A DNA stretch of 39,390 nucleotides. Source: Escherichia phage HF4s. Where the stretch lies: sequence record MT833387.1. One strand, written 5' to 3'. Of this stretch, positions 11,515 to 29,304 are shown in pieces (within the stretch, counting starts at the first letter, position 1; the number at the start of each line of letters is the position of its first letter). Position numbers and translations under genes: made by a program. The notes below the pieces were generated by a model that worked only from the letters and a program-made list of their open reading frames with translations, searched no databases and was not told the origin of the DNA.

Positions 11515-13511
11515 TGGCTAAAGCATGGAAAGATGTTATCGCCTCTCCACAGTATCAGGCGTTAGCACCAGAACAAAAAGCGCAGGCTCAGGAGCAATAC
11601 TTCAATGAAGTCGTTGCTCCGCAAGCCGGAGAAAATGCAGAGCAGGCTAAGCAAGCTTTCTATGCTGCCTATCCATTGCCATCTGTGCAGCCAGTGGAGA
11701 CACAGCAACCAGTAGCACAGCAACAACCACAGCAAAGTGGATTCATGTCTGATCTTGGCGAAGCAGTAAAAGAGACTGGTCGCGGAATGGTGCAGGCTGG
11801 CGTGAACGTGGCAAACATACCTGCATCAGTTGCCGATGCTGTAATAAGCGCGGCGGCTTGGGCTGGCGGTAAACTCGGCATTGGCGATGGTACATATCAC
11901 CCAGCGCCACGAGTAACAACGCAGGGATTAGAGCAGGACTTTGGCCTTCAGCAAGGCGCGCTGACTCCACAAACGACAGAGGGCAGGGTGTTTGCTGAAG
12001 CATTGCCTTACCTCACTCCTGCTGGCGTTGAGAGAGCGGCAGCACAGGCACCAACACTTGCTGGTCGAATTGCTCAGGGGGCAACTCGCCTTCTAGCAGA
12101 AAACGCAGTTGGATCACTTGCTGCAAATAGTGCGAAAGATGATGCGGAAGCACTCGCCACCGATTTAGGCGTTGGTGTGCTGGCTGGCGGTGCTATTAAC
12201 GCTGCCGGACGTGGATTAGGTGCTGCTTATCGTGGCGTTCGTGGTGCTATTGCGCCAGAAGCGCAGCAGGCTATCAGATTTGCAGAGCGTGAAGGAGTTC
12301 CTCTGCACACCACAGACCTGTTACAGCCTACTTCCCGGGTCGGAAAAATGGCGCAGACTACAGCAGAAAATATCCCTCTGGCTGGCACAAGCGGAATGAG
12401 AGCAACGCAACAGGAAGCGAGAAGCCAGTTGGTGCAGAGATTTGCTGATAAATTCGGCGAGTACGATCCGGCAGTTGTTATTGACAGCCTTAAAGCGAAA
12501 ACATCAGGAATTCGTCGTGCTGCAGGGAGCCGTCTTGAGCAGGTTCAGAATGCAATGGCGGGAGTCAATATACAGCCTGCGCGAGCAATTCAGCAGATTG
12601 ATACTGAGATATCTAATCTGCAGAAGCTTGGTAAGGTAGCTGATAACGAGACAATTTCAAAACTTCAGTCATATCGTGATGAGCTTGTTCGTAATGCTGG
12701 CCCTGATGGTCCGGTAAATCTGGATTTGAAGCAATTAAGCGACCTGCGCAGCCAGTTCAGAATGGACGTGAAGGGTGAGCGACCAGTGTTACCAAACCGT
12801 TCCGATGCCGCCATTCAGCGCGTTTACAAGGCAATGACTGACGATATCAATGGTGCCATTGGTCAGAATCTTGGCAACGATACTCTCCGTAAATATCAGC
12901 AGGCCAATGCCGTCTACGCTGACGAAGCGGCGAAACTAAAGAATACCAGGCTGAAGAATGTTCTCATGAAAGGCGACCTGACGCCTGAGGTCGTAAACAA
13001 CATGCTTTTCAGTAAGAACAAGTCTGAGGTGCAGAACCTCTACAACTCTGTCGGCCAAGTAGGTCGGTCTCAGATGCGTAACGGCATTATCGGCAAGGCG
13101 ATGGAAAAATCAGGTGGCTCACCTGACCAGTTCCTGCGACAGGTTAACCTGATGTCTAACCAGACTGGAATCGCGTTTAAAGGTCGTGATGCTGCTTATC
13201 TGAAAGGGCTGAAGAACTACCTGGAGTCAACGAAGCGAGCAGGACAAGCAGGAGTAACAACGCCAACCGGCCAGCAGGCTATCCCGTTCATTATGGGAAT
13301 TGGCACTGTAACTAACCCAGCATTATTAGGGGTTGGAGGTGGATATGGCTTACTTGCAAGAATGTATGAGAGCGAACCAGCACGTAATGCGATGCTTCGC
13401 CTGGCAAATACCCCTAGAGGGTCTACCGTCTTCGAGAAAGCGTTATCTGACGTCGAGCGCATTGTTAATTCATTCGCTCAGGGCGCGAAGTCTGAGGCAT
13501 TAAGTGAATAG
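11514..13511 (+). CDS. ejection protein, P22 gp16-like
   Basis: 665 aa in the gp16 position; Gly/Ala-rich segments. Confidence 0.75.
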   Translation: MAKAWKDVIASPQYQALAPEQKAQAQEQYFNEVVAPQAGENAEQAKQAFYAAYPLPSVQPVETQQPVAQQQPQQSGFMSDLGEAVKETGRGMVQAGVNVANIPASVADAVISAAAWAGGKLGIGDGTYHPAPRVTTQGLEQDFGLQQGALTPQTTEGRVFAEALPYLTPAGVERAAAQAPTLAGRIAQGATRLLAENAVGSLAANSAKDDAEALATDLGVGVLAGGAINAAGRGLGAAYRGVRGAIAPEAQQAIRFAEREGVPLHTTDLLQPTSRVGKMAQTTAENIPLAGTSGMRATQQEARSQLVQRFADKFGEYDPAVVIDSLKAKTSGIRRAAGSRLEQVQNAMAGVNIQPARAIQQIDTEISNLQKLGKVADNETISKLQSYRDELVRNAGPDGPVNLDLKQLSDLRSQFRMDVKGERPVLPNRSDAAIQRVYKAMTDDINGAIGQNLGNDTLRKYQQANAVYADEAAKLKNTRLKNVLMKGDLTPEVVNNMLFSKNKSEVQNLYNSVGQVGRSQMRNGIIGKAMEKSGGSPDQFLRQVNLMSNQTGIAFKGRDAAYLKGLKNYLESTKRAGQAGVTTPTGQQAIPFIMGIGTVTNPALLGVGGGYGLLARMYESEPARNAMLRLANTPRGSTVFEKALSDVERIVNSFAQGAKSEALSE

Positions 13512-13620
13512 GGCGACGCCAACACATATTCCGAAAATTAAGAAAGCAAAGTTCAACAAGTTTCGTTCCATAAACCCTCCACTCTTTTAACCAATTATAA
13601 CCGACCTTAACGCAACGCTG

Positions 13621-13646
13621 CGCAAGTTTTAGCTTGTGCGGTTTTG
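13621..13646 (+). terminator. imperfect hairpin plus U-tract upstream of tailspike
   Basis: CGCAAG-ttttag-CTTGTGCG followed by GTTTTG in the 155-bp gap between gp16 and tailspike. Confidence 0.3.
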
Positions 13647-13666
13647 CTGCGCCAGGAGCACAGTAA

Positions 13667-16042
13667 ATGTCAGATATCACAACAAATGCTGTTGTCGTAA
13701 ACCCACGCCCTATTTTCACCGACTCAAGAACGTTCCGAGCAGTTGCTAATGGTAAAATCTACGTAGGGAAAATAGACACCGACCCAACCATTCCATCAAA
13801 CCAGATCCCGGTCTACCTTGAAAATGAGAATGGTGACAAGGTTCAAATCCCTCAACCACTCATCGTAAATAACGCTGGCAAGATTGTTTACAACGGACAG
13901 TTAGCAAAGGTCGTAACGGTAAACGGTTATAGCATTGCCGTATATGACGCCTACGGTTCTCAAGTTGACTATATCCCAAACGTCCTTGGGTACGATCCAG
14001 ATAGCTTCAAAGACCAATTAGCTGGCCCAGACGGAGCATCGTTAATTGGTTATGGCAATGGAACGGTTGCAGATAAGCTTGATGAGCTTAAGACGCCATT
14101 TGACTTCGGCGCTAAAGGGGATGGAGTAACTGACGACACGCTGGCATTACAAGCATACATTGATGGTGTAGATGGCGACATTGACTTATACGGAAAAACT
14201 TATCTAGTTAGCAAAAACCCAGCACTTGCAACTACCTATCCAACGGAACCTGATTTAGCCAACAATGGATACAACTTCTGCCCGTGTCTCGCTATAGTTA
14301 ATAAAACCAATAAGAGAATCTTTAACGGCACACTCGTCAGCAAGGTATTTGGTCAGTCTGTTCTGTCTATCATCAACAGCACAGGAATAGAAGTTAACCT
14401 TAAAATTGTTGGGTTTGGTAAGTTTCCTGCCATTGACCACCCTAGTGGATATGCGGAAAAAGGATATTCAACTGGGGGCTACAATACGATTGATGGAGGC
14501 CTTCTTCTTGGCCCAAACAATTCAATCCCCACCTCCAGCTATACGCTAGGAAAGTACAATGGGGTATCAGGTCAGTTCCCAATATACGATGCCTCATGTA
14601 ACCCTACAGGTGGATATCAGTCTACTTGGGGTGCATTTGGAGGGGGTTACATTGGTAGCTATGCATGTGCTGTAACTATTCAGCGGGCATGCAAAAATAT
14701 AACACTACGCGGCTGTGAGATATACGGATTCAATGAAGCTGCTGTCGGCATTGGCATAAGATTTATTGTCAGCTCCACTGGATACACCGACTATACAACC
14801 GATGCTGATGTTCCTCGTGGGGTTAACGTCCTGGATTGCTATCTGCATGACTGCTACACAGCAGGAGTGCACGTATGCTCAGGGTACAATATTGTTTATG
14901 ACTCGTTAAGAGTGGAGAACATTGGTCATCCCAATGCAGATGACGCAACAGACACAGACATTAACCCAGGATACGGAGTAACAACATCAAGATTTAGAAA
15001 CATCCGAAACATAACTTGCGTGAATAGTTTCTTCCTAAATTGCAAACGCAAATCTATCGATTTCCATGCAGGCGGGCAATTGATAGTTGATGGAAACTAT
15101 TGCATGAGAACAGGTGTCAATGGCATATATTTTGAGGCGGGATTTGGTTGGGATAATGGATACGAGCCATATAACGTCATTGTTACTAACAATTACATTG
15201 TTACAAGAGCACTAGGCGTGGTTGGCACTGGTGGGATTTCCATGGTAGGAAATGGCTCCGCCCTAGCAGAGTCATACCCGTATCCTTTTTTGAAGTGTAA
15301 CAACAACTATATTGAGGTAAGGGCTGCCAACGGGGTGGGTATTAATAATGGTTACAACAATAACGATTACCACTATGAGGACATAAACATATGTGATAAT
15401 ACGGTTGTATACAAATCTGACACCTACACCCCGGGTCAGTTTGTTGCTATTCGTTGCAACCTAAATACTCCTTCATCTACTACTCTTCCGAAGCAAAACA
15501 TCAAGCTCTGTCGTAACAGCATAAAAATCCTGACAACGCTTGGTAATTACGCATTCGGAACTCCAATAACCATCGGTGGAACTCCTGCTGTTCTTATTGC
15601 AACCGATAATACAGTGGATATGGGGAACGTAGCTAATGGATCAAGTGCATGGTATGCGACAATTACCCCCAACCCAATAACTGACTATTACTTCTCAGGT
15701 AATAAAATACTTAACTACATTAAACCAGCCACTTTAAGACAAGCGGAAGTTATGTTCTATGACAACATAGGATTTACTGCCACAGGAACTTATGTTTCGA
15801 TAGCTATGCAGTGGTTTAGAGGGATATGGACGGTTGATGCAGCTGGTCTCGATTCACTTGCTGGCGCTAAGTCAGTTACCCTTGCATCTGACGGGGTCGG
15901 GATCACTCAGGGAACCCCGATACAACATGGGTCAATATCAGCTGCAATGACAATAAGTTCATCTAATATTGGGTTTACTACCACCGCCGGAACGACATGC
16001 TACGTTGGCGTAAAAATGAAACCTGTTGGTATTAAAGCATAA
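13667..16042 (+). CDS. tailspike protein: P22-type head-binding domain fused to a pectate-lyase-like beta-helix depolymerase domain
   Basis: 791 aa; first ~115 aa closely match the P22 gp9 head-binding domain (NPRPIFT...[16 protein letters not shown]...YDPD); remainder is unrelated to the P22 endorhamnosidase and carries the [13 protein letters not shown] motif of pectate-lyase-fold depolymerases. Confidence 0.9.
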
Positions 16043-16046
16043 ATAT

Positions 16047-16070
16047 GGCGGGGATACCCCCGCCTATTTT
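16047..16070. terminator. bidirectional intrinsic terminator between convergent tailspike and gtrC
   Basis: GGCGGGG-ata-CCCCGCC hairpin flanked by A/T runs on both sides. Confidence 0.6.
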
Positions 16071-17301
16071 ATTTCTGGTATATGTAATCGATACCGTAAT
16101 ATTCTCCAGCAGCTTTAGGGTTATGGAACTTATCAAGGCGATCCCCTAACCTGAAAGTGTTCTTCTCATTATATTTTGGCACTGTAATCACCTTTTCTCC
16201 AGAATGAATGCCTTTCTCTATCATTGCCACTCTGTCCAAGTATTGATTGTTTATATCTATGTAATATGATGACAACATGAAATAATCAACAAGAAATACA
16301 GGCAATAAAGTTAAAAGTAATACTGGCGTATAAAATTTTGAGATTTTCCCCTCAAATGAAGAAATTATCAGCGACAGACTTGCGAGAAGCAAAATAAAAC
16401 CAGTGGTCATAGCCCTTTGCGGATAGTAAGGTGCTGCAAACATAATTACATTCGAGCCGATTGCAAGGGCAAAGAATATAAAGGAGTATTGCATTTTTGT
16501 TTTATCATGCAGCATTGACAATGACGACAAAATAAACATTGATGTCATGATTACGATTATTAGTGCCCCATACTGCACAAGCATTTCAGGCATCCGGTCA
16601 AGCATGTGAAAGTAGATTCTTTCAGTTAAATCTTTTGAATACCATGAACTGAATGAAGGGCCGGAAGCCCTTGCTGCATTCCCAGGTGCCAAAAGCATGG
16701 AGGCAGAACCAACAAGTACAAATGGCAATAGAGCCAAATCTTTTACAGCGAAACGCTTGTTTATGAATGCCAATATACTATGACAAACGATAAATCCCAC
16801 AGAAAGCACCGCCACTGACTCATTCGATGCGCCAGCTAAAAATCCTAACGCAGCTTGTGGTATGGTAAATTTTACACCTTTCATTAAATTATTGCACAAG
16901 AGCATTAGAAGTAATGAAGGTATTAGATAATTAACAAACCCTACAACCCAAAAGGTATTTTGGCCTATGGAAGGGTTAAAAATAAAGAATGAAACCGCTA
17001 TTAAGCAGAATATAGCAGCCCCACCCTGAGCCATTCTCCTAATAACATGCATCAGAAGTATGCTAACTGTCGCGGTAACAGTTGCACTCATCGCATTAGA
17101 TTTAGCAAAAAGGATCATCGGACTAATAAAGTCTACTATGTATCTGCCGCTCCACCCCATATACATTGCAATATGCTTGTCAATGCTAAATCCAAGATTG
17201 CAGAATGCATAATCATCAGATTGCATTGGTGAAAGATAGCTTATTGCCCAAACCATCCCAAAGAAGGCAATATATGCGATAGGGTCTAAATACTTTTTCA
17301 T
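16069..17301 (-). CDS. gtrC: serotype-specific O-antigen glucosyltransferase, GtrC-type polytopic membrane protein
   Basis: 410-aa multi-pass membrane protein immediately downstream of gtrA-gtrB in the same orientation; visibly AT-rich relative to neighbours. Confidence 0.7.
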
Positions 17302-18214
17302 TTTCTTCCCTTCAGCACGTAACGAGGCCTATTCTTAACTTCTACGTAAATCCTGCCAATGTACTCACCGAGCACACCAATTCCTATTAGCTGAATACCG
17401 CCAAGAAAAAGAATAGAAACAAGGAGGGATGGATACCCACGAACCGCATTACCAAAGGCCAGGGTGTCTATAATCATCCACGCGCCGTACATAAACGCAG
17501 CACCGGCAACGAACAGGCCAATATAAGTCCACATGCGCAGTGGGAATGTTGAGAAGCTTGTGATCCCCTCAAGCGCCAGGTTCCATAGCTTCCAGCCGTT
17601 GAATTTGGTGCTTCCAGCCACTCGTTCTGCTCTGGCATACTCCACAACATCGGTACGGCCGCCAACCCAACTCAATACGCCTTTCATGAACAGGTTGCGC
17701 TCAGGCATGAGCTTAATGTTTTCTACCACCTCGCGAGACATTAGCCTGAAATCTCCAACATTTTCCTCGATCTGCGGGTTGCTGATTTTGTTATGCAGCT
17801 TATAGAACCACTCGGCGGTTTTCCTCTTCAGTCTGCCATCAGTTGAGCGGTCAGATCGTTTAGCAAGCACCATGTCAGCACCTGCTAGCCACTTTTCAAT
17901 CAGATGAGGAATGACCTCAATCGGGTCTTGCAGGTCAACATCAATAGGAATAACGGCATCACCTGTTGCATGGTCTAACCCTGCAAACAATGCTGGTTCT
18001 TTACCAAAGTTTCGTGTAAATGACAGCGGAACAACTAGAGGATCTGAAACGGACAGAGCGTTAATGATTGACTCCGTAGCGTCTTTGCTACCATCATTTA
18101 TAAAAACAATTTCCACTTCATATGGCTTCAACTCTTCGAATTCACGTACCGTTTTATAAAAATAGGTATCGCTTCCTCTTCGTTGAAGACAGGAACGACC
18201 AGAGATATCTTCAT
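17298..18214 (-). pseudogene. gtrB: bactoprenol glucosyltransferase GtrB, frameshifted after codon ~19
   Basis: ATG overlapping the gtrA stop encodes the canonical [19 protein letters not shown] and then terminates; the rest of GtrB ([10 protein letters not shown]...) continues in another frame; break at the T5 run (plus-strand A5, 18158-18162). Confidence 0.85.
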
Positions 18215-18573
18215 TTCGCATCCCTAAAGACAATGAACTTTGAATAGACGAAACCGCACACTAGGCTGATGGCGGAGAAGGTGACAAGAGTGACAATTGG
18301 AGGAAGTGCACATTTATCGGCAGCCCATCCAACAGTAGCACTCAGTGTTCCCATGAATCCTACATATAACATGTAGCGCATCGTTGTAGTCGAAGCTTTG
18401 AATGTGAATTTTGCATTCGCGAAGAAGCTAAAGCTCACAGCCACAACGAAACCTGCGAAGTTTGCAAGAGCCTGATTGGTGTGCGCGGCATAGATACATA
18501 CACCAAAAACCACCCAATGTATAAGTGTGTTCAGCACACCAATCGAGGTGTACTTTGCAAATAGCTTTAACAT
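18211..18573 (-). CDS. gtrA: GtrA flippase-like small membrane protein
   Basis: 120-aa hydrophobic protein with stop overlapping the gtrB start (ATGA); typical gtrA size and arrangement. Confidence 0.85.
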
Positions 18574-18706
18574 TTCTTCTATCAGCTAATAATCAAAGGC
18601 ATGAAGTCTATCATCCAAGCATCAATCGATCGATGACTTGCTGTGGTTGATGAGACAAAACTGAGATACACAAGGCTTTGTGACATTCGATAGTGGTTAA
18701 GGTCGA

Positions 18707-19900
18707 TCACTCCACCTTTTCATCAAGCCAGTCCGCCCACCACTGCATCATTTCTCTGCGCTTATCGAGATACTGAGCATGGTTGTAAATCCCACGCACA
18801 GATCCGCCGTTGGCATGTGCCAGTTGCACTTCAATAGCATCAGCAGGCCATTCGTGCTCGTTCATAATCGTGCTGAATTCATGCCTGAATCCGTGACCGC
18901 TTTCCAGACCCTCATAGCCGATTTGTTTGATCACAAGCAGTACCGCGTTCTCGCAGATTGGCTTCTTCTTATCGTTGCGCCCGGCAAAAACAAACTCTGA
19001 TACTGGTTTGGTGATTGAGCTTAGCGTAGTGAGAAGTTCAACCACCTGGTCTGACATAGGAACCACATGAATTTTGCGTCCTTTCATCACACTGGCGTCG
19101 ATGGTGATAATCCTGTTTTCAAAATCGACGTTCTTCCATAGCATGGAACGAAGCTCTTTCGTTCTTAGGGCTGTGTAGCGTAAAACTTTGGTCGCAATGA
19201 GCGATACGATACTTCCTGAAAATGTTGCCAGTGCTTTGTTGAATGCAGGGATCTGGTCTGCAGGAAGAAACGGGAAGTTCTTCTTGCGGTATCCCTTCAT
19301 GGCGTCAGCAAGGTCAGGTGCCGGGTTATATTTAGCCCTACCAGTGACAATAGCGTAACGGAAAACCTCGCCGCATCTTCTGCGGGCTTTGTTGGCTCGC
19401 TCCATTGCACCGCGATCTTCAAATCTGCGGATTACTTCCAACAGTTGCATCGGCTCAATATCCTGAATCTCAAGACCGCCGATGATGGGTAAAATGTCGT
19501 CATCAAACATTTTGGCAAGTTCAGTTGCATAGCCTACTGACCAGACTTGCTTCTTGTGCTCGTACCATTCCTTGTAAATCGCACTAAAGGAATTGTTGTT
19601 AGACGAAGCCTTTTTCGCCTTTACCGGATCGATGCCAACCGAGATGTCTTTCCTCGCAGTCCATGCTTTATCCCTTGCCTCTTGCAAAGTCATAAGCGGA
19701 TATTTTCCGACGGTCAGGATTTTCTCCTTACCGTCAATCTTGTAGCGAAGCTGCCATACCTTTTTCCCGGATACAGGGACATAAAGGTACAGGCCATTAC
19801 CATCGAGAAGGCGGTATGGTTTTTCTTTCGGCCTTGCTGCTTCAATCTGCTTAACGGTGAGCATGGGTAAAAATCCGGTGGGTAAAATTATTTTATCCAC
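18707..19900 (-). CDS. int: tyrosine integrase, P4-type (IntS-like)
   Basis: 397 aa with GTG start; N-terminal arm-binding-type domain and C-terminal catalytic domain with conserved R...H..R...Y region; attP-like sequence immediately upstream. Confidence 0.9.
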   Translation of the reverse strand: MDKIILPTGFLPMLTVKQIEAARPKEKPYRLLDGNGLYLYVPVSGKKVWQLRYKIDGKEKILTVGKYPLMTLQEARDKAWTARKDISVGIDPVKAKKASSNNNSFSAIYKEWYEHKKQVWSVGYATELAKMFDDDILPIIGGLEIQDIEPMQLLEVIRRFEDRGAMERANKARRRCGEVFRYAIVTGRAKYNPAPDLADAMKGYRKKNFPFLPADQIPAFNKALATFSGSIVSLIATKVLRYTALRTKELRSMLWKNVDFENRIITIDASVMKGRKIHVVPMSDQVVELLTTLSSITKPVSEFVFAGRNDKKKPICENAVLLVIKQIGYEGLESGHGFRHEFSTIMNEHEWPADAIEVQLAHANGGSVRGIYNHAQYLDKRREMMQWWADWLDEKVE

Positions 19901-20025
19901 TTTTTACCCGTCATGGAGTGCGGCTGTCAACGATCTGACGCGAACCATTACGAACTGTTAATCTACGGAAGGCTTGATATTCAGGGGATTTTGCGGACTG
20001 GTACGGATGGGAGCGAACTGATAAA

Positions 20026-20040
20026 TGGTGTCCCCTGCAG
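20026..20040. other. candidate attP core (reverse complement of the 3' end of an argW-type tRNA-Arg gene)
   Basis: TGGTGTCCCCTGCAG matches the complement of the tRNA acceptor 3' end, in the 213-bp gap between xis and int, as expected for P4-type integrases. Confidence 0.5.
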
Positions 20041-20113
20041 ACATCTACTTGAAGCGGCAGGGGATTGATTGGAATGGTGTTTTTTAGGTGTGAGAAATAT
20101 TTTACCCGCTATT

Positions 20114-20314
20114 TTACCCATTGGCGCGGCTTAAGAGCTTATTTTTGAATTCACAATGGTCACGATATAACCATCTTGCGCGTCCGTGGATAACTTTGGC
20201 TTTTGGCAGGTCGCCGGACTTAATCCGGTCATAGATGAAGGTTTTACCGAAGCCAGTATCGGCCATGATGAATTTCAAATCAACCAGGGAATCAGGCTGT
20301 AGTTCGTGTTGCAT
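20114..20314 (-). CDS. xis: excisionase / AlpA-family DNA-binding protein
   Basis: 66 aa with AlpA-like helix-turn-helix (IMADTGFGKTFIYDRIKSGDLP...GRARWLYRD); directly upstream of int. Confidence 0.7.
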   Translation of the reverse strand: MQHELQPDSLVDLKFIMADTGFGKTFIYDRIKSGDLPKAKVIHGRARWLYRDHCEFKNKLLSRANG

Positions 20315-20371
20315 GAGTGCTATCTCCGAATAGGGAATCGAACCTGCAAATCAGGCAATAAAAAACCGCCA

Positions 20372-20539
20372 TCAGGCGTTTTTGTGTTCTTTCAGTTCTT
20401 CAATTCGAATATTGGTTACGTCTGCATGTGCTATCTGCGCCCATATCATCCAGTGGTTATAGCAGTCGTTGATGTCCTCTGCTTCGATAACTCTGTTGAA
20501 TGGCTCTCCATTCCATTCACCTGTGACTCGGAAGTGCAT
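20372..20539 (-). CDS. small hypothetical protein (55 aa)
   Basis: ATG-initiated ORF below the track size cutoff (MHFRVTGEWNGEPFNRVIEAEDINDCYNHWMIWAQ...). Confidence 0.45.
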   Translation of the reverse strand: MHFRVTGEWNGEPFNRVIEAEDINDCYNHWMIWAQIAHADVTNIRIEELKEHKNA

Positions 20540-20610
20540 TTATCATCTCCATAAAACAAAACTCGCCGTAGCGAGTTCAGATAAAAGAAATCCCCGCGAG
20601 TGCGAGGATG

Positions 20611-20895
20611 TTATTCATTGCCGATATTCACCTTTATCGCGAACACCTTTACCGGTTTATCACCGAAGTGCGGATGTGTGATTGTCTTGATTTCATAGCC
20701 GCCATACGGAACGTCAATTCTGCGGCTGGAATCGTCACGCTTCGGATATCCCTTTGTGATAATCAGGCGGTCATACTCCCGGAACATAATTCGCTTATTC
20801 CAATAGTCATTACACAGGCGATACTCTTCCGTTTTCTCTCCTCGAATCATGGCATCGAAGTATTCACCTTTGACGGCAAGTTGTAGGTTAGCCAC
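20611..20895 (-). CDS. hypothetical ea-region protein
   Basis: 94-aa ORF, 8-nt overlap with the upstream gene. Confidence 0.5.
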   Translation of the reverse strand: MANLQLAVKGEYFDAMIRGEKTEEYRLCNDYWNKRIMFREYDRLIITKGYPKRDDSSRRIDVPYGGYEIKTITHPHFGDKPVKVFAIKVNIGNE

Positions 20896-21172
20896 GACCT
20901 TCCTCCTTTGGCTTGTGAATTTGTATCGTCATGCCGCTTTGAGTGGTGACTACAATGACAGAACCAGGCTGAAGGCTGTTAAGATTGAATGCTTCGTAAA
21001 ACGAATCCAAGGCCAGCGCTTTTTTATTCTTTCGGTTCCACCAACGCCATCCCTTGCTACAGGCTACACTGACAATCCACTGTCCACTCCTGTAAGCCAT
21101 ATAAAACCAGATGAGCAAAACCTGAAGGAAGGCTATCCAGTCAATAATCGTATATTTCGCGAAGGAGTCCAT
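20888..21172 (-). CDS. hypothetical single-pass membrane protein
   Basis: Internal ATG at 21172 preceded by GGAGGT RBS; one predicted TM helix (IIDWIAFLQVLLIWFYMAY). Confidence 0.5.
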   Translation of the reverse strand: MDSFAKYTIIDWIAFLQVLLIWFYMAYRSGQWIVSVACSKGWRWWNRKNKKALALDSFYEAFNLNSLQPGSVIVVTTQSGMTIQIHKPKEEGRG

Positions 21173-21379
21173 CACTTCACCTCCTGCGCCGTTTTGATGA
21201 TTGCTGCCAGACAATTCTTGCAAGGAACAAGCAGCGTTCCCTGCTCAATGCTCAATAGCGCATGCTGAGCATCCTGAAAAGCCATTCGAATGACCCTGGC
21301 CGATGACCGCACCATGTCTCAATCTCGTGCTTAGGGAGTTTAACTCCCTCTCGATAGTCATATTTGATGATGTGCTTTC

Positions 21380-21571
21380 TCACGACTTCACCTCCTGTTG
21401 AGCAGAAACCTGATTTTTGAGTGATTCAGAAATATTCCTGCAATACCTAGCGGATTCATCGTCGAAAATGCTTTCGAAATACTCAGCAATCCAGCCGAAC
21501 ACAACAACCTGCTCATTGCTTGGATTTGCACTTTGATTGAAGGCGGTTATTAGTGATGCACTCATACTCAC
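21380..21571 (-). CDS. hypothetical protein
   Basis: 63-aa ORF translationally coupled to the upstream gene. Confidence 0.4.
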   Translation of the reverse strand: MSMSASLITAFNQSANPSNEQVVVFGWIAEYFESIFDDESARYCRNISESLKNQVSAQQEVKS

Positions 21572-22389
21572 TTAACCTCCTGCGGCGGTTCAGGTAGTGG
21601 CATCCAGTGGGTTACATTGCTAATCAGACCATATTCATTAGTTTGAGGATGGTTGCCGCTATCATCTCCATATTTAAGACTCTCCATAAAACCATAATGC
21701 TTATTCCCATTAACTCTCACAAAACCGTAATAAGCTGGTATAACGCCGATCTCACACGTAACCAGTAAAGGAACACTAGTTCTCCAATTTATCTCGCCAA
21801 TTACAGGCATTCGCTCACTACAGCTTATCCAACCATCCGGAGTTACCGGATAGTTGCCAGCCAGTCTACGCAAAACAGCCTTAACAGCTTCAATACGGTC
21901 ATCATCAACTTTTTCTACAATATTGGAATTTAAATACTTCGAAGCGTTGCTATGCCAATCGCTGGTTTTAGGGTCTTGTCCATCCATCAAACGCCAAGCT
22001 TCAGCGATTAACTCATAGCCAGTGACAGTGGCTTCCTGCGCATCACCAATCAGTTGTGTGATCTCTCTTTCAAGCATGCTTAGAGGGTTAGGCATTGGTT
22101 TTTCTTCCGGTACTACTGGCGCTGGAGGGGCGGCGTAAATGCCCTCTATCACTAAATGTTTGCGCTCAAAATCATCTGGCTCTCGATGATATACGTAACT
22201 CCAATCACCAAGGTTATCATTGCGCCTGAAACGGAAACCTATCGGCTCTGCTTCCAGCGATGCCAGTGCGATACGCAGGGCAGCCAGGATATTCCCCTGG
22301 TAATCATCAAGCCCGAAAGGAAGCTCATCACGAACGCTTTCATAATCGTTGATAGCCTGCTGCAGCCATTCTCTTGTGATAGTGCTCAT
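21568..22389 (-). CDS. DUF551-type lambdoid prophage protein
   Basis: 273 aa; C-terminal W..PLPEPP region typical of DUF551 ea-region proteins. Confidence 0.6.
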   Translation of the reverse strand: MSTITREWLQQAINDYESVRDELPFGLDDYQGNILAALRIALASLEAEPIGFRFRRNDNLGDWSYVYHREPDDFERKHLVIEGIYAAPPAPVVPEEKPMPNPLSMLEREITQLIGDAQEATVTGYELIAEAWRLMDGQDPKTSDWHSNASKYLNSNIVEKVDDDRIEAVKAVLRRLAGNYPVTPDGWISCSERMPVIGEINWRTSVPLLVTCEIGVIPAYYGFVRVNGNKHYGFMESLKYGDDSGNHPQTNEYGLISNVTHWMPLPEPPQEVK

Positions 22390-23006
22390 GATGCCTCTCC
22401 TTTAACTGCTTCGGTGACGTTTATTCCAGCGTTGTGCAGTGCCTCAAGAACCTGATGCTGCCTGTAAACCATTTCAGTGTGGTAAGGCTCGTCAAAATCG
22501 ACGCGATGCAACATGCTATAGCATTGCGGAAGCACAACCTCCCGCAACTCCAGCTCAGCAATGCGCTTCTCTGCGGCTTCCAGCTTCTCGCGCATATCGT
22601 CAACGTACTCGACCAGAGATCCGCCAGCAGGAATTTCGCACTCCTCGACCAGTTGGAAGTAGATATCAGCTGCGGCCCGTGTGTTGCTATGCCTAGCGTC
22701 GCCCATCTCACCTTCACGAAGAGCATCGCGTTCGGCGGTAAGATTGGCTATTTTGCTGTCTTTGCCTTCCAGCTCAACTCGCAGCTTCCCTACCGTTAGC
22801 GCAATATCCTCGTTCTCCTGGTCGCGGTGTTTGATGTATTGCTGGTTTCTTTCCCGTTCATCCAGCAGGGCCAGCACAATGTGTGGCGTTATCAGGGACT
22901 CAAATTCGGCAACAGCTTGCTCGCCTCGCTTGTAATTCTTAATCCCACCTAAATCTTTCGCGTTCTGCGCCGCCTCACGCAGTGCCTGATAGTCAATCTT
23001 GCTCAC
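22386..23006 (-). CDS. Ea22/Ead-like coiled-coil protein
   Basis: GTG start at 23006 preceded by AAGGAGG, overlapping the Lar stop; coiled-coil rich. Confidence 0.55.
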   Translation of the reverse strand: MSKIDYQALREAAQNAKDLGGIKNYKRGEQAVAEFESLITPHIVLALLDERERNQQYIKHRDQENEDIALTVGKLRVELEGKDSKIANLTAERDALREGEMGDARHSNTRAAADIYFQLVEECEIPAGGSLVEYVDDMREKLEAAEKRIAELELREVVLPQCYSMLHRVDFDEPYHTEMVYRQHQVLEALHNAGINVTEAVKGEAS

Positions 23007-23226
23007 TGTTCGCCTCCTTTGCTCGCTGATTCCACTCTGCTCTAACCTCTGAATAAAAAATCGCGCAGTCATTTCCAGGCGCTGCATATTTGCTACCAGA
23101 TTGAGCGCGACACGTACCGCATCGAACGAAATAGAATCGACCGCCAGAGCCATATTCAGGGTGATCTGCTTCGCTGGCAACGTGCGCTGCACCGCCACAG
23201 AATGGACATGGTAGTAGGTTGCTCAT
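22993..23226 (-). CDS. Lar-family restriction alleviation protein
   Basis: [13 protein letters not shown]-terminus and second Cys pair (CGTC) characteristic of the Lar family. Confidence 0.65.
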   Translation of the reverse strand: MSNLLPCPFCGGAAHVASEADHPEYGSGGRFYFVRCGTCRAQSGSKYAAPGNDCAIFYSEVRAEWNQRAKEANSEQD

Positions 23227-23783
23227 GAATGCACTCCCTTGTGAAGCTGTTCCGCACAATGCAGCAGGGCGTCAGTCGCCTCTTTCACCGTAACGCAGTC
23301 GCCATCGTCCAGCCCGGACACCGACGCGTGCTTAACGAACGCCGCGCAAAGGTCATCAAACGCCTTAGCCCGGACTTCAGCCAGGAAAGCATCGGTGGCT
23401 GGGGTGTCAACACGGATGCTGTCGCGCAAGATGAAAAATGCATTGAGCATTCCAGTCTCTGGCACTTCATCCTGATGCTTCTCATACGCATCAAGAGCCT
23501 TCATCATCTCATGTCCGAATGGTTGAGGGTGCGCAGCCTTCAGCCCAGCATTCTCCGCCGCCAGCACTGAAAACTTCTCGTGTGCCAACTTAACAGCCGA
23601 ATCAGCCTGCTTAATTGACTCAATCGCTCTCTGTTGGTCTTCGGACAGAGCCGAAATCTTGGCCTCCGCTTCAGCAAATTTACGCACCAGATATTCAGCG
23701 TTTGTTTCGTTAACCTTTAAATCTCGTGGAATGCATTTACCTTTCAGAAATCCATCCATCTCAATTAGTGACATTTGTTTCAT
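23223..23783 (-). CDS. hypothetical ea-region protein
   Basis: 186-aa ORF coupled to flanking genes (ATGA overlaps). Confidence 0.5.
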
Positions 23784-23944
23784 TTCTTCCCACTCCGCAA
23801 CATCGCATTCAGATATTTGTTGTCATTAACAGAACCGAAACTCTTTCTCTTAAGCAATTCCTCTCTCGATGGCATTGGCTTTACGCGTTGGCGAATAATC
23901 ATTTCTGCCGGAAGAATGCCGGGATTGTATGCAAGTCCTCTCAT
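23780..23944 (-). CDS. small hypothetical protein
   Basis: Probable start at internal ATG 23944 with GAGGAA RBS, 8 nt after the upstream stop. Confidence 0.4.
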
Positions 23945-23954
23945 GGTAAATTCC

Positions 23955-24248
23955 TCAGTCATTACTGATAGCGCCATAGCGTGAGCGGTAATTACGCAGG
24001 CGCGGGTCAATTTCAGGGAAGTGGGTATATGTGGCTTTGCGGAATGGTCGGATTGATGTCTGGTAAATTCGCTCGCGTTCTTCTTTCTCTGCAAGCCATA
24101 TACAATGGCGAAATTCCTTTTCCTCTTTCGTTTCCTGCGGTAGCGACATTATCCGATCGTAGTTTTTTCTGAATTTATCCAGCACCTCCGATACGGAATT
24201 GCCGGAACAGCGGCGCGCGTCATCCGCACCATACAGAGGCGCTGGCAT
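23955..24248 (-). CDS. hypothetical protein (Abc-position, possible anti-RecBCD)
   Basis: 97-aa ORF downstream of the erf-ssb pair; function inferred from position only. Confidence 0.4.
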
Positions 24249-24271
24249 AATGGAATCCTTATTTTGCTAAT

Positions 24272-24654
24272 TTAGAAGGGAATTGAATCGTCGTATTCAG
24301 GATGATTTTGATGATTGCTACTTTGTTGCTGTTGGCTGTTTCCTGAAGTTGCAAATCCAATCTTTGCATTCAGTAATTCAAGAGTGATTGATTGACCATT
24401 TTGCCCCTGATAAACATCAACCCTGATGTTTTCTCCGGTAATTTCCACAATGCCACCTTCAACAAGAACACTACGGTAGTAATCCGCTTGCGCTCCTGGC
24501 TTGGCAAATACAACGGCGCTGTAGTTTGTCCATTCTTTCTTTTTGTCTGGCGATCGTAATACTGAACGCCAGCACGGATGTTGAATCCGATATTTTCCCC
24601 GGCCTGAAACTCTCTTGCGGGCTTGTTTAGTCTTACAGTAATCGAATGTGCCAT
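24272..24654 (-). pseudogene. ssb: single-stranded DNA-binding protein, frameshifted
   Basis: N-terminal ~40 codons in one frame; the other frame continues as an OB-fold-like sequence ending in the SSB acidic tail (EYDDSIPF-stop); break at the A5 run (plus-strand T5, 24540-24544). Confidence 0.75.
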
Positions 24655-25259
24655 TAAGCAGCCGCTCCTTCTAATTCGTCTCGTCTGATGTTGTAAACGC
24701 CCTGCGCTTTGTGCTGCTCCGGTGTGCCTTCGAGCATCTTCCACGCTTTGGCGAACGCCTGTTTAAGCTCTTCCACGGTGTTTTTCTGCAATGCTGCGTC
24801 AGTGAATGCTTTTAGAACCTGTTCAGGTGTAGGTGATGGTTTTGACTGCTTTGCTGCTGCGTTCTGCTGATGTTTATGCTCGTCTGTATCTGCATCTTTC
24901 GCATCATCAATGCCGAACAAACCATTGAGGCAATATTTGCGTGCATAAGAGCTTGTAGCTCCCGTAACTTGTGCAGAATCCATTCCTTTCTTGCTTTCTT
25001 CCTCTCGTGCAAGAGCGGTTGCCGTATGACTGTTTTCGCCATCGGTAATAGTTGCCGTGGCTTTCACGTAATACCGATCACCAATCAACACAACTTCATC
25101 GCTGATTGATAAAAACAGACCATTCAGTAACGGCTTAACGCCTTCAAGAATATCTTCGCAGCTTCTGTATTTATATTTACCGAATGAGTTGTACTGATTC
25201 TTTGGCGCGTTCAGATTCTCCTGAATAGCTGCCAGTCTTGCGTAAAATTCTTTGCTCAT
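24654..25259 (-). CDS. erf: Erf single-strand annealing recombinase
   Basis: N-terminal ~120 aa closely match P22 Erf (MSKEFYARLA.IQE.LNAPKNQYNSFGKYKYRSCEDILEGVKPLL...). Confidence 0.9.
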   Translation of the reverse strand: MSKEFYARLAAIQENLNAPKNQYNSFGKYKYRSCEDILEGVKPLLNGLFLSISDEVVLIGDRYYVKATATITDGENSHTATALAREEESKKGMDSAQVTGATSSYARKYCLNGLFGIDDAKDADTDEHKHQQNAAAKQSKPSPTPEQVLKAFTDAALQKNTVEELKQAFAKAWKMLEGTPEQHKAQGVYNIRRDELEGAAA

Positions 25260-25348
25260 ATGATTGTTCTCAGAATGGACATGGCCCAAGGAAATAACGC
25301 TGATTTAATACTTCAGTCTTTGCCGCATTTAAAAATACGCGAACACCT

Positions 25349-25534
25349 TCACGATCTCCCTTCTGGCGATACATTAACGCCTGCTGCGTGTACATGCGTC
25401 TCTGTAACTTGCTCTCCTTCACTGTGGTTGCAAGTGACATGAATATCTCCTTCGTTACCGATTAATTCTTTCATCTGACGAATGAATTCTTCGTCTGACC
25501 AGTTATCTGTAAAACTCATTTCCTGCGATACCAC
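25349..25534 (-). CDS. hypothetical small protein (arf position)
   Basis: 61-aa acidic ORF between kil and erf. Confidence 0.4.
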   Translation of the reverse strand: MVSQEMSFTDNWSDEEFIRQMKELIGNEGDIHVTCNHSEGEQVTETHVHAAGVNVSPEGRS

Positions 25535-25665
25535 GGAAGGTTGATAGCTGATTTCATCGCTTTATTTGCTTCAAGCCACATTTTGGAATCACCAATAAAT
25601 CGGGCTATTACTGCTTTGTTCTGTGCTGCACGAAGCATCTGGTGATTGATAGCTATTTCATTGCG
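25513..25665 (-). CDS. kil: Kil-like host-killing protein
   Basis: 50-aa ORF directly after cIII containing IARFIGDSKM, similar to the lambda Kil core (IATFIGDEKM). Confidence 0.6.
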
Positions 25666-25784
25666 CATAATAAGACCTCAACTCTTTTCCATCCGTCACG
25701 TAATTTACGGGTGATTCGTTCAAGTAAAGATTCATTTAGTTGGAAGGCACCCATGCGAGCGCCTCCCGCGATTGCGTAAATCAT
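25650..25784 (-). CDS. cIII: CIII-like protease inhibitor
   Basis: 44-aa ORF containing ESLLERITRKLRDGWKR, identical to the lambda CIII central helix. Confidence 0.8.
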
Positions 25785-25808
25785 GGGTGGTTCCTTATGT
25801 TGGTTTTA

Positions 25809-26777
25809 TTAGTAGGTTATTTTTGTTGCGAATACTTCGCCTTTTACGATGGCTGTTATGATATTTTTAGCAACATCTTCTGATGCGCCAACCTTGATAA
25901 GGTCAGCAAGTATTTTGTTATTTACTTCTTTCCGGTGAGCTTTATCCTTTGCTCTACGCTCTTCTTCGTCCTTGATTCTTTTTTCTTCTGCTATTCTGGC
26001 TTGCTCTTTTGCTTCAGCCTCGCGACGGATTCGTTCAGCCTCCTCCTGTGCTTTTCTGCGCTCTGCTTCAATTGCTGCCTGCTTTTCTCTTTCAGCTCGT
26101 TCTGCTGCCTCTTTTGCTTCGCGCTGTGCTCGTTGCTCGGCTTCAATGCGTTCACGCTCTGCACGTTCCGCTGCGGCCTTAGCTTCTGCTTCTCGCCTTG
26201 CTGCTGCTTCAATTTCGGCTTTTGCCTTTGCTTCGGCTTCTGCTCTGGCTTTCTCTTCAGCTTCTCTTTTTAATCGTTCTTCATGCTCTCGCTTTTCCTG
26301 CTCCGCTTTGAGTCTTGCCTCTTCTCTTTGGCGGTCAAATTCGCGATCCATCAAAATAGCTATTTCATGGTCAGACTCAATTTGCTTTGCGAGAGCTTCA
26401 GCTGCTGCCTTAGCTTCTTCTTCGGCTTTAATCCGCGCCTGTTCTTCCTCATAATCAGTAAGAGGCTGGCGCGCCTTGGCTTTCAGCTCATCAAGGCGAT
26501 CACGCACTGTCTTGCGGTTGGCATCAATTAGCTTTGGAATTTCCTTCAGTTCAGCAACAAGGTCTTTGCCAAGACCATCGAGATATGTTTTCGTCTGCGC
26601 AACTTTATACGCCAGAGAAGCGATCTCCTTTCTGCCCTTTGCCGTTGTGATATCAGGCACAAAGGACATAACTTCACGTTCAACCTTTTGAAGGATTTCT
26701 TCAATCTGGTCGGCAGACTGAAATACAGTCATTGCATTTGCTTTTTCAATAACAACTAAATCTGTTACTTCACTCAT
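25809..26777 (-). CDS. hypothetical protein with long charged coiled-coil (E/A/K/R repeat) region
   Basis: Start assigned to ATG 26777 (GGAGG RBS) downstream of the terminator; ~150 aa of EAKA/ERAER low-complexity repeats. Confidence 0.7.
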   Translation of the reverse strand: MSEVTDLVVIEKANAMTVFQSADQIEEILQKVEREVMSFVPDITTAKGRKEIASLAYKVAQTKTYLDGLGKDLVAELKEIPKLIDANRKTVRDRLDELKAKARQPLTDYEEEQARIKAEEEAKAAAEALAKQIESDHEIAILMDREFDRQREEARLKAEQEKREHEERLKREAEEKARAEAEAKAKAEIEAAARREAEAKAAAERAERERIEAEQRAQREAKEAAERAEREKQAAIEAERRKAQEEAERIRREAEAKEQARIAEEKRIKDEEERRAKDKAHRKEVNNKILADLIKVGASEDVAKNIITAIVKGEVFATKITY

Positions 26778-26789
26778 ATATCCTCCATC

Positions 26790-26818
26790 AAAAAAATTGC
26801 CCTCACATCGGAGGGCAA
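26790..26818 (-). terminator. intrinsic terminator (tL1-like)
   Basis: Minus-strand TTGCCCTC-cgatgt-GAGGGCAA hairpin followed by a T7 run. Confidence 0.7.
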
Positions 26819-26965
26819 AGAAGATTTCCAATAATCAGAACAAGTCGGCTCCTGTTTAGTTACGAGCGACATTGCTCCGTGTATTCACTCGTTGGAATGA
26901 ATACACAGTGCTATGTTTATTCTGTTGTTTATGCCAAAAATAAAGGACGGTTATGCGGCCTGAAA

Positions 26966-27415
26966 TTACTTAACCAATGATGCTGCATATTCGATAAGGT
27001 AAAGTTTTGGGGCCAGCCAAATTTTTAACCAAGTCATATTGGTTACTACACCAATAATAAAAATCCCCCACAGAGTCAAAACTCCAACCAATGGCATGAT
27101 AAGAAGGTTAATATCTCCTTTGCTATCCCAAACCATTGTCGGACTGTATTTGGTATTTCCCCTCTCCCATGAGTATCCTTCATCACCGATTTTACCTGTC
27201 TCAACTCTTTGGCACTGCTTCTTCATAAACCAGAAAACCAGTGGGATTGTTAGAATGGCTATTAATGTTTTAATCAGACTGTCAACCATATTCCATAGCA
27301 GCAACTGATGAACAACATCAGGAATCTGCGCTTGGCTGAATGAAACAGCCGCGTCTATTCCATTACTGGCTTTTTGCAGTAGTTCTACGAGAATCTTGTT
27401 TGCTTGTTCTTCCAT
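26966..27415 (-). CDS. membrane protein in SieB position (candidate superinfection exclusion protein)
   Basis: 149 aa, two strongly hydrophobic helices; first gene after N in the PL operon. Confidence 0.6.
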   Translation of the reverse strand: MEEQANKILVELLQKASNGIDAAVSFSQAQIPDVVHQLLLWNMVDSLIKTLIAILTIPLVFWFMKKQCQRVETGKIGDEGYSWERGNTKYSPTMVWDSKGDINLLIMPLVGVLTLWGIFIIGVVTNMTWLKIWLAPKLYLIEYAASLVK

Positions 27416-27423
27416 ATCTCACC

Positions 27424-27729
27424 TCAATCGTAATAAGCTGGAATTGATTTTCCGCGTTGCTTCTGGCGGCCTGAACAGGTCACACCCATTTCACTGCGTG
27501 GCTTGCGGTAGTAAATACGGTTCTGTTTAAGCTCGACTTCTTCTGCCTTCTTGCAGCGAAGGCTTCCGAGTGATGCTGCTTTATCTGCTCTGACGCAACC
27601 AGAGAGCTTTAGCGCAATTTTTCGCGCCAGTCGCTGCTCTTGCATTGCCTGTTCACGTTGAGCCTGTCTGCGTGCTCTGCGGCGATTTCTGGCGTTATCG
27701 TCAGCCAGATATGTAATGACTACTGTCAT
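27424..27729 (-). CDS. N: antitermination protein N
   Basis: 101 aa; arginine-rich motif near the N-terminus (NARNRRRARRQAQ); C-terminus (GVTCSGRQKQRGKSIP) matches lambda N. Confidence 0.85.
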   Translation of the reverse strand: MTVVITYLADDNARNRRRARRQAQREQAMQEQRLARKIALKLSGCVRADKAASLGSLRCKKAEEVELKQNRIYYRKPRSEMGVTCSGRQKQRGKSIPAYYD

Positions 27730-27836
27730 GTTGACCTCCGATGATTGACTTTGGCGGTGACGCGCCGGGTGCTTATCTTCCGGTTGCCGTCGTGCAGCTG
27801 CACTTCACGTCACCCCAAAGCCAACTACTCTTTGGT

Positions 27837-27878
27837 TCCCGCATTTCGGCGGGACAATCCCATCAATGTTAAAGAGCC
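27837..27878 (-). promoter_or_regulatory. nutL (boxA plus boxB)
   Basis: Minus-strand GGCTCTTTAACA (rrn-like boxA) followed ~12 nt later by the TCCCGC-CGAAAT-GCGGGA hairpin, identical to the nutR boxB. Confidence 0.7.
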
Positions 27879-27925
27879 TGCCAATCTGTTCCGTTTGGCT
27901 ACCAGCGTCCTGCTGATGGCTAAAG

Positions 27926-28010
27926 AATACTGTAGGTATTTTATTGTGTAAATACCCAAGGTATTTATTTTTGGTGAAATAATGATAAGCAAATGAATAC
28001 AAAGGATATT
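27926..28010. promoter_or_regulatory. OL operator region / PL promoter
   Basis: Three 15-bp sites of the form AATAC-N5-GTATT (AATACTGTAGGTATT, AATACCCAAGGTATT, AATACAAAGGATATT), same consensus as the OR sites. Confidence 0.65.
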
Positions 28011-28096
28011 TATTTTTTCGGTGTCTGCTTGTTCAGTGCTTTTTATGCGGGATATGTGAAGTGGATCCCGATAGCTATTGCTGCCGGGATTATGGG

Positions 28097-28464
28097 TTAG
28101 TCAGCGAAGGTTAAGACGAGAATTACCTTAATGATGTCTGCTACAACAGACACGGCCATAGATAAACCAAAGACAATCCAAGCCATAGAGATGTCTTCAC
28201 TACCATCGTATAGGGTTCCGTAATCACTGGTGTAAGGCGTAAATGTCGCGCCTTGATACAATAGGTATAAGCTTGATCCATAGAGGATAAATGCAGATAT
28301 CCCTTGTATTGCTATGATCACTAGAATCATGAAACGAGCTGATCTATGCGCCCAAGCCTGGCTTATTTTTCTGATAGAGATTTCGCAATAAAAGCATGCG
28401 CTAAGCCGTAAATTGTCGAGATTGCCAACATCCCAAAAAAGCTTGCTATAGCGGTTCCAACCAT
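28097..28464 (-). CDS. small multi-pass membrane protein in the rexAB position, split by apparent frameshift
   Basis: 33-aa hydrophobic ORF (AAGGGG RBS, 17 nt after the cI stop) and 77-aa two-TM ORF (28097..28330) are separated by an A5 run; adding one A fuses them into one ~122-aa protein with 3-4 predicted TM helices. Confidence 0.6.
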
Positions 28465-28481
28465 AATCGCCCCTTGCGTGA

Positions 28482-29198: not shown

Positions 29199-29204
29199 AG
29201 CTTA

Positions 29205-29275: not shown

Positions 29276-29304
29276 TTGTTCATGGTTAATAACGGAGAGT
29301 GCAT

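Follow-up and report, generated by a model that had tools for sequence, protein, structure and literature searches.

The tailspike of phage Hf4s joins a P22-type anchor to a beta-helix body that appears to be exchanged together with an O-antigen-modifying gtr operon

Mosaic P22-like tailspikes with swapped bodies are a classic, textbook theme, and the Sf6 gp14 and HK620 gp9 tailspikes are the textbook case of a kept anchor joined to a replaced body. The tailspike locus of Escherichia phage Hf4s raises the question of where precisely the swap lies in this phage, what the acquired body recognises, and how far the exchanged DNA extends. The window, by which we mean the whole stretch of 39,390 nucleotides that was analysed, corresponds to the genome published as a single 39,390-bp contig with its left end set as in Sf6 (Kulikov et al. 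2021; bioRxiv 10.1101/2021.06.09.447823; AEM 87:e01124-21; GenBank MT833387); position 14 of the window aligns to Sf6 position 1. Hf4s was described there as a temperate Lederbergvirus, seen in electron microscopy as a podovirus with tail spikes, with HK620, Sf6 and N7 as its closest relatives (Kulikov et al. 2021), and the same three phages were recovered as closest in our nucleotide comparison. The genome was divided by these authors into parts spanning 0-16042, 16043-29499 and 29500-39390, with 11514-34507 also mentioned (Kulikov et al. 2021); we noted that 16042 is the tailspike stop, and that 11514 and 34507 are ORF starts. The tail spike, gp15, was itself described in that work, and the following elements delimit its gene and its N-terminal domain:

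13654..13658, plus strand: Shine-Dalgarno sequence AGGAG, 8 nt 5' of the ATG, read directly from the sequence
13667..16042, plus strand: tailspike gene (Hf4s g15), ATG start, 791 aa; the database protein P0001 is 100% identical
13667..14002, plus strand: P22-type head-binding (particle-anchor) domain, residues 1-112, with YDPD (109-112) at its end

The identical database entry carries the title 'phage tailspike protein [E. coli]', and the ORF order makes this the final gene of a P22-type late operon, following three ejection-protein genes. Pfam searches with the products of the genes lying 5' of it recovered the families P22_portal, P22_CoatProtein, P22_Tail-4, Phage_stabilise, P22_gp7, Inj_translocase and Phage_P22_gp16. 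In gp15 itself residues 1-112 are covered by PF09008 Head_binding with a score of 177.3 bits against a cutoff of 24, and a gapless alignment of residues 1-115 with the same residues of P22 gp9 has 84 identical positions out of 115 (73%). The close match to the particle-binding domain of P22 that an initial annotation had proposed from the sequence is thus borne out, and the N-terminal domain of P22 gp9 is also found among the PDB sequence matches to gp15 (E ~1e-50). Past this domain, sequence searches returned no significant similarity beyond residue 115 against P22 or beyond residue 187 against Sf6 gp14 (623 aa), the BLASTP comparison with the latter giving a single significant segment at query residues 1-187; this agrees with the earlier statement that the body is unrelated to the P22/Sf6 endorhamnosidase. 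Thus gp15 shares with P22 gp9 the anchor, the YDPD hinge and the general plan of anchor, beta-helix and C-terminal domain, but its body is without sequence similarity to that of gp9, resembles it only as a generic beta-helix fold, and contributes to a protein that is 125 aa longer. The excess of 168 aa over the Sf6 tailspike had been calculated correctly. The Sf6 backbone is 96% identical at the nucleotide level over 58% of the first 25 kb, which was the stretch queried, and has the same anchor domain; in contrast, its anchor DNA is only ~77% identical to that of Hf4s, with the homology ending early, its spike body is unrelated, and it carries oac (O-acetylase) downstream where Hf4s has gtrCBA. 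These comparisons confirm gp15 as a mosaic tailspike, in which a P22-type anchor is followed by an unrelated beta-helix body.

The transition between the two parts could be narrowed to a few codons and is followed by a conserved segment with a boundary of its own:

14003..14047, plus strand: recombination junction or hinge, residues 113-127 ([15 protein letters not shown]), the gap between the anchor and body-cassette homologies
14087..14293, plus strand: conserved N-terminal beta-helix cap, residues 141-209 ([17 protein letters not shown]...CPCLA), a second, nested recombination boundary

More than 20 P22-like phages (BTP1, MG40, ST160, SE1 and others) are homologous to Hf4s at the nucleotide level as far as 14002-14010, and position 14002 is the third base of the D112 codon in Y109-D-P-D112. 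The blastn homology to phages that share the body starts at 14033 in the contig L005 and at 14045 in L006, which correspond to residues 123 and 127. Given that the anchor homology ends at 14002 and the body homology starts at 14033/14045, the swap must lie within residues 113-127, immediately after YDPD, in agreement with the domain swap at this hinge that had been anticipated. Further downstream, the cap-coding segment 14088-14292 is 93% identical at the nucleotide level to a more distant locus, L008, and the rest of the L008 spike shows no blastn homology; the only other stretch that the two loci share is gtrB/gtrA (78% nt). As the 5' homology to L008 is confined to the cap, a nested left boundary is indicated at about residue 209. 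The cap segment is also the peak of conservation within the body family. We considered purifying selection alone as the cause of this conservation and rejected it, since 93% nucleotide identity to L008 beside undetectable homology argues for recombination.

It is to this cap that the pectate-lyase-type signature of the initial annotation belongs. The motif ([13 protein letters not shown]) is indeed present, at residues 146-158, but it represents the cap motif only and the corresponding Pfam matches are sub-threshold: PF12708 scores 19.5 bits against a cutoff of 27 and covers residues 146-166 only, PF12218 scores 21.5 against 26.3, and PF13229 was not reported for gp15, though it is precomputed for several of its homologues. 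The match between gp15 and Sf6 gp14 after residue 115 is similarly weak and gapped, and is limited to the linker and the cap, with the motif pattern DFG.xDGxTD.

The remainder of the spike was delineated with an AlphaFold2 monomer model derived from a 52-sequence alignment (mean pLDDT 82, pTM 0.78):

14294..15739, plus strand: right-handed parallel beta-helix body, ~residues 210-691, predicted to bind and cleave the O-antigen
15740..16039, plus strand: C-terminal beta-sandwich, ~residues 692-791, pLDDT 83-93, conservation 0.28-0.42

In this model the anchor has low confidence values, as would be predicted for a domain whose folding requires trimerisation, the neck consists of short helices at residues 111-147, and a regular right-handed parallel beta-helix extends over ~residues 152-682. 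The structure prediction that had been suggested as a check on the beta-helix claim accordingly favors a right-handed beta-helix. Foldseek searches with the model against PDB and BFVD gave only generic tailspike or beta-helix matches, at 10-20% identity; the TM scores were low, probably in part because the full-length model includes the flexible anchor. A PDB profile search with the family alignment matched other spikes in the neck and cap alone, PHROGs matched the cap and not the body, NCBIfam returned nothing for either the spike or GtrC, and no solved structure for the body family was found in the PDB searches. The family is also small. When the distal body (residues 210-791) was searched against a library of 1.84 billion cluster representatives, 122 of them were recovered at E <= 1e-3, and only about four other 50%-identity clusters in that library match over most of the body length. 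A megablast search of the tailspike gene against 5,426 complete E. coli genomes detected a 195-nt 5' fragment only, and scans of species-representative genome contigs and IMG/VR gave almost exclusively matches to the cap motif or the head-binding domain, along with a single body homologue (L047, 44%).

Among the family members a strong set of constraints is nonetheless apparent. About 138 positions of gp15 are identical in at least 29 of the 30 aligned homologues, although overall identity falls to ~40%. The invariant residues of the body include E264, D375, D381, H421, D426, R461, K462, D465, H467, E500, E550 and D572, and a dense charged cluster of conserved residues is formed by H421, D426, R442, R447, R461, K462, D465, H467 and E500. 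The pattern of conservation suggests that this cluster at 421-500 is the candidate active site. The most variable part of the family is the final 200 residues, including the C-terminal beta-sandwich.

The body had been called novel in the initial annotation. This description does not hold, as gp15 was already presented as a P22-type spike that shares, in its C-terminal part, 45% identity with the spike of the T7-like phage Peacock (Kulikov et al. 2021), isolated on the same strain, E. coli 4s; we measured 44.8%. Bodies 42-48% identical over ~600-650 residues are likewise found in the spikes of the T7-like phages Peacock and LS2, in those of the Enterobacter phages vB_Ecl_MII_003 and BUCT554, and in the Agtrevirus TSP1-type spikes of P46FS4 and ChubbyThor. 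Unlike Hf4s, these are virulent phages without gtr genes, and their spikes carry anchors of the PF18668 or T7 gp17 type. In the literature searched we found no assigned specificity for the Agtrevirus or other body homologues, and no report of depolymerase activity for gp15 or its homologues.

What the spike recognises is best constrained by the published biology of the phage. Loss of the O-antigen backbone makes mutants of E. coli 4s completely resistant to Hf4s, a non-O-acetylated mutant strongly reduces its growth, the host's own side-chain glucose is not needed, and lysogens lose phage adsorption (Kulikov et al. 2021 and companion study). The O-unit, a hexasaccharide, contains Glc, GlcA, GalNAc3Ac, Gal and GalNAc, with a further Glc as side chain (Kulikov et al. 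2021 and companion study), and NMR revealed that a second side-chain Glc is attached by the prophage gtr cluster to O-4 of the GalNAc residue E (Kulikov et al. 2021). The O22-like O-antigen of E. coli 4s has in this way been shown to be the essential primary receptor of Hf4s, and we infer that gp15 is the protein that recognises it. This supports the earlier prediction of a receptor distinct from those of P22, which uses Salmonella O:4/O:9, and of Sf6. It also means that the body belongs in large part to an already characterised tailspike of known specificity, in the sense that the receptor is published for Hf4s at the phage level. Both the mosaic tailspike of Hf4s and its receptor are therefore already known, the junction and the structure model being our additions; the published account (Kulikov et al. 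2021) does not report where the junction lies, and contains neither a structure model nor the relatives in Enterobacter nor the cassette described below. A target other than the O-antigen that is common to Enterobacteriaceae, such as colanic acid or ECA, was suggested by the occurrence of homologues in phages of four genera, but was rejected on the strength of the published mutants and of the gtr linkage.

With regard to the activity of gp15, the published account gives only an HHpred similarity to glycosidases (Kulikov et al. 2021). The body could alternatively be a polysaccharide lyase, acting by beta-elimination at GlcA, rather than a glycoside hydrolase of the kind found in P22, Sf6 and HK620. 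We entertain this as a tentative possibility, one that is suggested by the presence of GlcA in the O-unit and by the fact that the top structural neighbours of the model are lyases; hydrolases, however, score nearly as well in the same structural comparison. As judged from the predicted structure, hydrolase and lyase mechanisms stand level.

The question of how far the exchanged DNA extends leads past the end of the tailspike gene. The initial annotation was right that the body had been swapped, but it missed the continuation of the transferred unit into the adjacent gtr operon:

14033..18575, no strand assigned: shared cassette of spike body and gtrCBA, aligning co-linearly and without gaps to a T7-like prophage of E. 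hormaechei and, over part of its length, to a third type of prophage
16047..16064, no strand assigned: bidirectional intrinsic terminator GGCGGGG-ATAC-CCCCGCC, common to the convergent tailspike and gtrC genes
16069..17301, minus strand: gtrC, serotype-specific O-antigen glucosyltransferase, 410 aa, PF19528 (DUF6056 / GT_STM0557_N)
17298..18214, minus strand: gtrB, bactoprenol glucosyltransferase (GT2), frameshifted, with a T missing in a T-run near 18157
18211..18573, minus strand: gtrA, flippase, 120 aa

The three gtr genes are co-oriented and overlapping, and encode GtrA (PF04138), GtrB (GT2, PF00535) and a polytopic GtrC, with E-values of 2e-13, 3e-25 and 2e-49. The linkage specificity of the added Glc would reside in GtrC, to judge from its family. 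Across 13500-17000 the GC content falls from ~0.50 to 0.38-0.44.

Our comparison of this region covers seven temperate loci. The segment 14045-18575 aligns by blastn as one unbroken block, at 81.3% nucleotide identity, to the Enterobacter hormaechei prophage L006, and 14033-17557 aligns at 77.6% to L005, whose contig stops there. A sliding-window alignment of the cassette showed no gaps, and the block runs across the terminator. The spike of the E. hormaechei prophage (P0006, 891 aa) has a body 85% identical to that of gp15, and its GtrC and GtrB are 89% and 94% identical to those of Hf4s, over 4.5 kb of co-linear DNA with gtrCB(A). It differs from Hf4s in its host genus, in its T7-like temperate backbone (T7_gp14, SLT core proteins), and in its anchor of ~215 aa with a T7-fibre-like N-terminus. 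Two further spikes, P0004 and P0005, carry bodies that are also 85% identical to gp15, placed on a PF18668 Tail_spike_N anchor. In the contigs of both of these alternative-anchor types the spike is followed by a convergent gene for a 410-aa GtrC of the PF19528 family (78% identical to that of Hf4s in L005) and then by gtrB, and near-identical E. coli prophages at ybhB/bioA show the same order of tailspike, gtrC and gtrB. Bodies 85% identical and a PF19528 GtrC (89%, 78%) hence recur together in three different backbones.

A second kind of pairing is seen in the loci L009, L008, L127 and L128, which encode the spikes P0007, P0010, P0021 and P0008 with bodies 63%, 49%, 44% and 47% identical to that of Hf4s, respectively. 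In each of them GtrC is a 482-485 aa protein of the PF14264 Glucos_trans_II family, and GtrB and GtrA are 94% and ~84% identical to their Hf4s counterparts. L006 and L127 share one T7-like temperate backbone, with 98% nucleotide identity as far as nt 718 of the spike gene and 91% in gtrB and beyond, and homology between them is absent across exactly the spike body and gtrC. Conversely, L008 and L127 differ in their anchors, yet are 89% identical over 4.55 kb comprising the body along with gtrC, gtrB and gtrA. L128, which has the same arrangement, belongs to a myovirus, as seen from its genes for Baseplate_J, wedge and Collar proteins. The pairing of body and GtrC across several backbones, together with the unbroken block, suggests that the body and the O-antigen modifier are exchanged as a unit, such that a receptor-binding body and its cognate GtrC appear to be transferred together by recombination between conserved flanks. 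We found no description of a co-exchange of spike body and gtrC across phage morphotypes in the literature searched.

The neighborhood of the two genes is not in itself informative. P22-like genomes generally have a gtr operon beside the tailspike, so adjacency alone carries no weight for co-transfer. In P22, epsilon34 and BTP1 convergent gtrC-gtrB-gtrA genes directly follow the tailspike, and the Gtr modification blocks the phage's own spike, but the GtrC family differs from the PF19528 of Hf4s. Such habitual placement of gtr between the tailspike and the att/int or lysis genes of temperate enterobacterial phages could by itself create an apparent linkage between a body and gtr genes that had been acquired independently. 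The recurrence of the tailspike-gtrCBA order in P22 and epsilon34 would fit this explanation, as would the uneven identity to L006, which is ~65-86% at the nucleotide level in the spike body (~78% as a whole) and 89-95% in gtrC (~91%), such that body and gtrC could differ in history or constraint; moreover gtrB/gtrA, being 84-94% identical everywhere, could recombine separately. Against this, the homology passes without gap or break through the gene boundary and the terminator common to both genes, the same body/GtrC pair occurs in three backbones with a second allele pair in others (L008/L127), and the non-homologous stretch between L006 and L127 coincides with body plus gtrC and nothing else. 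We hold independent acquisition to be the less likely explanation. For the broader proposal we see the chances as evenly balanced: namely, that the distal beta-helix forms with the convergent gtrC, and optionally with gtrB/gtrA, a host-range exchange unit that passes among phages with P22-like, T7-like temperate, PF18668-anchored or myovirus backbones and crosses between E. coli and Enterobacter, and that the body family may be a GlcA-directed lyase.

Taking the evidence on spike and operon together, we regard it as very probable that Hf4s combines a P22-type anchor with a foreign module for an O22-like O-antigen, carried in a body-gtrCBA cassette. Under this explanation the head-binding domain (112 residues) would attach the spike, presumably a trimer, to the P22-type tail hub, whose genes lie upstream, and after YDPD the foreign module would follow, comprising the short helical neck, the conserved cap, a beta-helix of ~480 residues and the beta-sandwich. 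The module would recognise the O22-like O-antigen of E. coli 4s, a recognition that is published at the level of the phage and here ascribed to the protein, with the O-acetyl group as part of the preferred epitope. Most probably the spike cleaves the polysaccharide and thereby allows the virion to descend to the outer membrane, the candidate active-site residues being H421/D426, R461/K462/D465/H467 and E500. It is improbable that the spike does no more than bind the O-antigen, or that it alters the O-antigen and leaves the chain intact as the deacetylating spike of G7C does, for although infection depends on an O-acetyl group as with the G7C esterase spike, searches of Pfam, PHROGs and NCBIfam detected no SGNH or other esterase domain, the predicted fold is a long beta-helix as in enzymatic tailspikes, and the tight charged cluster at 421-500 among the ~138 conserved positions is typical of an active site.

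In the cassette explanation that we favor, the body would be the left part of a segment of ~4.5 kb that runs through the shared terminator into the convergent gtrC-gtrB-gtrA genes. The gtr cluster glucosylates O-4 of GalNAc in the same O-unit and thereby abolishes Hf4s adsorption, as published, and the added glucose might act by sterically blocking the binding groove. Because the body would arrive with gtrCBA in one cassette, a single recombination would hand the phage the key to an O-antigen along with the enzyme by which the lock is changed once lysogeny is established. Plausible sites for homologous recombination are the hinge or the cap-coding DNA (~200 bp) on the left and gtrB/gtrA on the right, with the distal helix and gtrC as the variable core that is swapped.

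If this is true, one recombination event would give a phage both the ability to attack an O-antigen and a lysogen immune to the same spike. The O-antigen key and its lock-changer, apparently co-inherited across phage architectures and two host genera, would explain how the self-exclusion of temperate phages stays matched to their own receptor specificity, and would provide a simple rule for predicting the O-antigen modification by which a given spike is blocked. For spike engineering, natural splice points suggest themselves at the YDPD hinge and at ~residue 209, where the cap ends. Furthermore, a body family with a well-defined receptor and a defined inhibitory modification would be a convenient system in which to study how one side-chain glucose blocks a spike. 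Relative to the published work on Hf4s, the value of the present analysis would lie in the cassette observation, drawn from sequence comparison, and in a body family without a solved structure.

Two minor features of the gtr operon may be added. Near 18157 gtrB lacks one T of a T6 run that is complete in the 99.4% identical prophage L001, and the resulting frameshift may be an Ion Proton homopolymer error. The region upstream of gtrA, inspected for phase-variation signals of the Dam/OxyR type, contains only two GATC sites in 133 bp.

An identical tailspike protein was found in the prophages of two E. coli assemblies (L001 and L002; GCA_049817165.1 and GCA_958323355.1), which show only 2 nucleotide differences from the window across positions 12501-18300. 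The site of integration of these prophages adjoins ybhB-bioA, and their head genes are slightly different between the two assemblies. A set of 5,426 complete E. coli genomes contained no copy of the spike body. The same ybhB/bioA site is occupied by a further prophage, which retains a remnant of the tailspike gene:

NZ_CP092500.1, 2999103-3007297: prophage locus L003 of E. coli A30, from a horse in Canada

In this locus the Hf4s-type tailspike gene is represented by its first 195 nt alone, which are 100% identical and annotated as a pseudogene, with an IS66 element lying a few hundred bases upstream. Approximately 400 nt downstream of the remnant we observed a complete and different tailspike of 745 aa, which is P22-anchored and has an unrelated body, while the gtr genes are absent from the locus. 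This arrangement looks like a spike replacement caught mid-process, in another equine isolate.

Across positions 13001-18000 of the window, the head and ejection genes have a GC content of 0.50-0.53, which drops to 0.38-0.44 over the spike body and gtrC and rises again at gtrB, a compositional dip that is consistent with a foreign origin of the spike-body/gtrC core. The convergent stop codons of the tailspike and gtrC are separated by a gap of 26 bp, containing a perfect 7 bp GC stem (16047-16064; GGCGGGG-ATAC-CCCCGCC) with T-runs on both strands, which acts as a bidirectional terminator for the two genes. This element falls within the block common to other phages.

Within the spike body, residues 249-300 (window 14411-14566) are of low confidence and almost without regular secondary structure in the AlphaFold2 monomer model. 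Despite this poor modelling, they are among the most conserved of the family, with conservation seen at F253, P254, A255, I256, D257, G261, Y262, A263, E264, K265, G266, G271, Y272, N284 and N285. This stretch may represent a functional loop insertion on the modeled β-helix, perhaps as a wall of the groove or a site of contact between subunits.

The T6 run near 18157, in the 5' end of gtrB (18150-18165, minus strand), has one T fewer than its counterpart in L001, an E. coli prophage of 99.4% identity and the reference for this frameshift call. As a result the canonical ATG at 18214 is out of frame, and the sole remaining gtrB ORF is 17298..18233, with a TTG start. Given that seroconversion works, a homopolymer error of the Ion Proton sequencing is the probable cause of the missing T; alternatively, the frameshift may be real and complemented by the host's own gtrA/B. 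The gtr operons of Salmonella and P22 are phase-variable. In the window, the region upstream of the gtr operon, between the gtrA start and the int stop (18574-18706, 133 bp), has just two GATC sites, one of them within a palindrome-like CATCGATCGATTGATG stretch.

A 944-aa spike of the same body family, followed by convergent gtrC-gtrB, was also encountered in a Logan contig (L128, ERR10101439) after a myovirus-type tail module with Sheath_initiator, Baseplate_J, wedge and Collar fibre, placing a tailspike with adjoining seroconversion genes in a contractile-tail phage.
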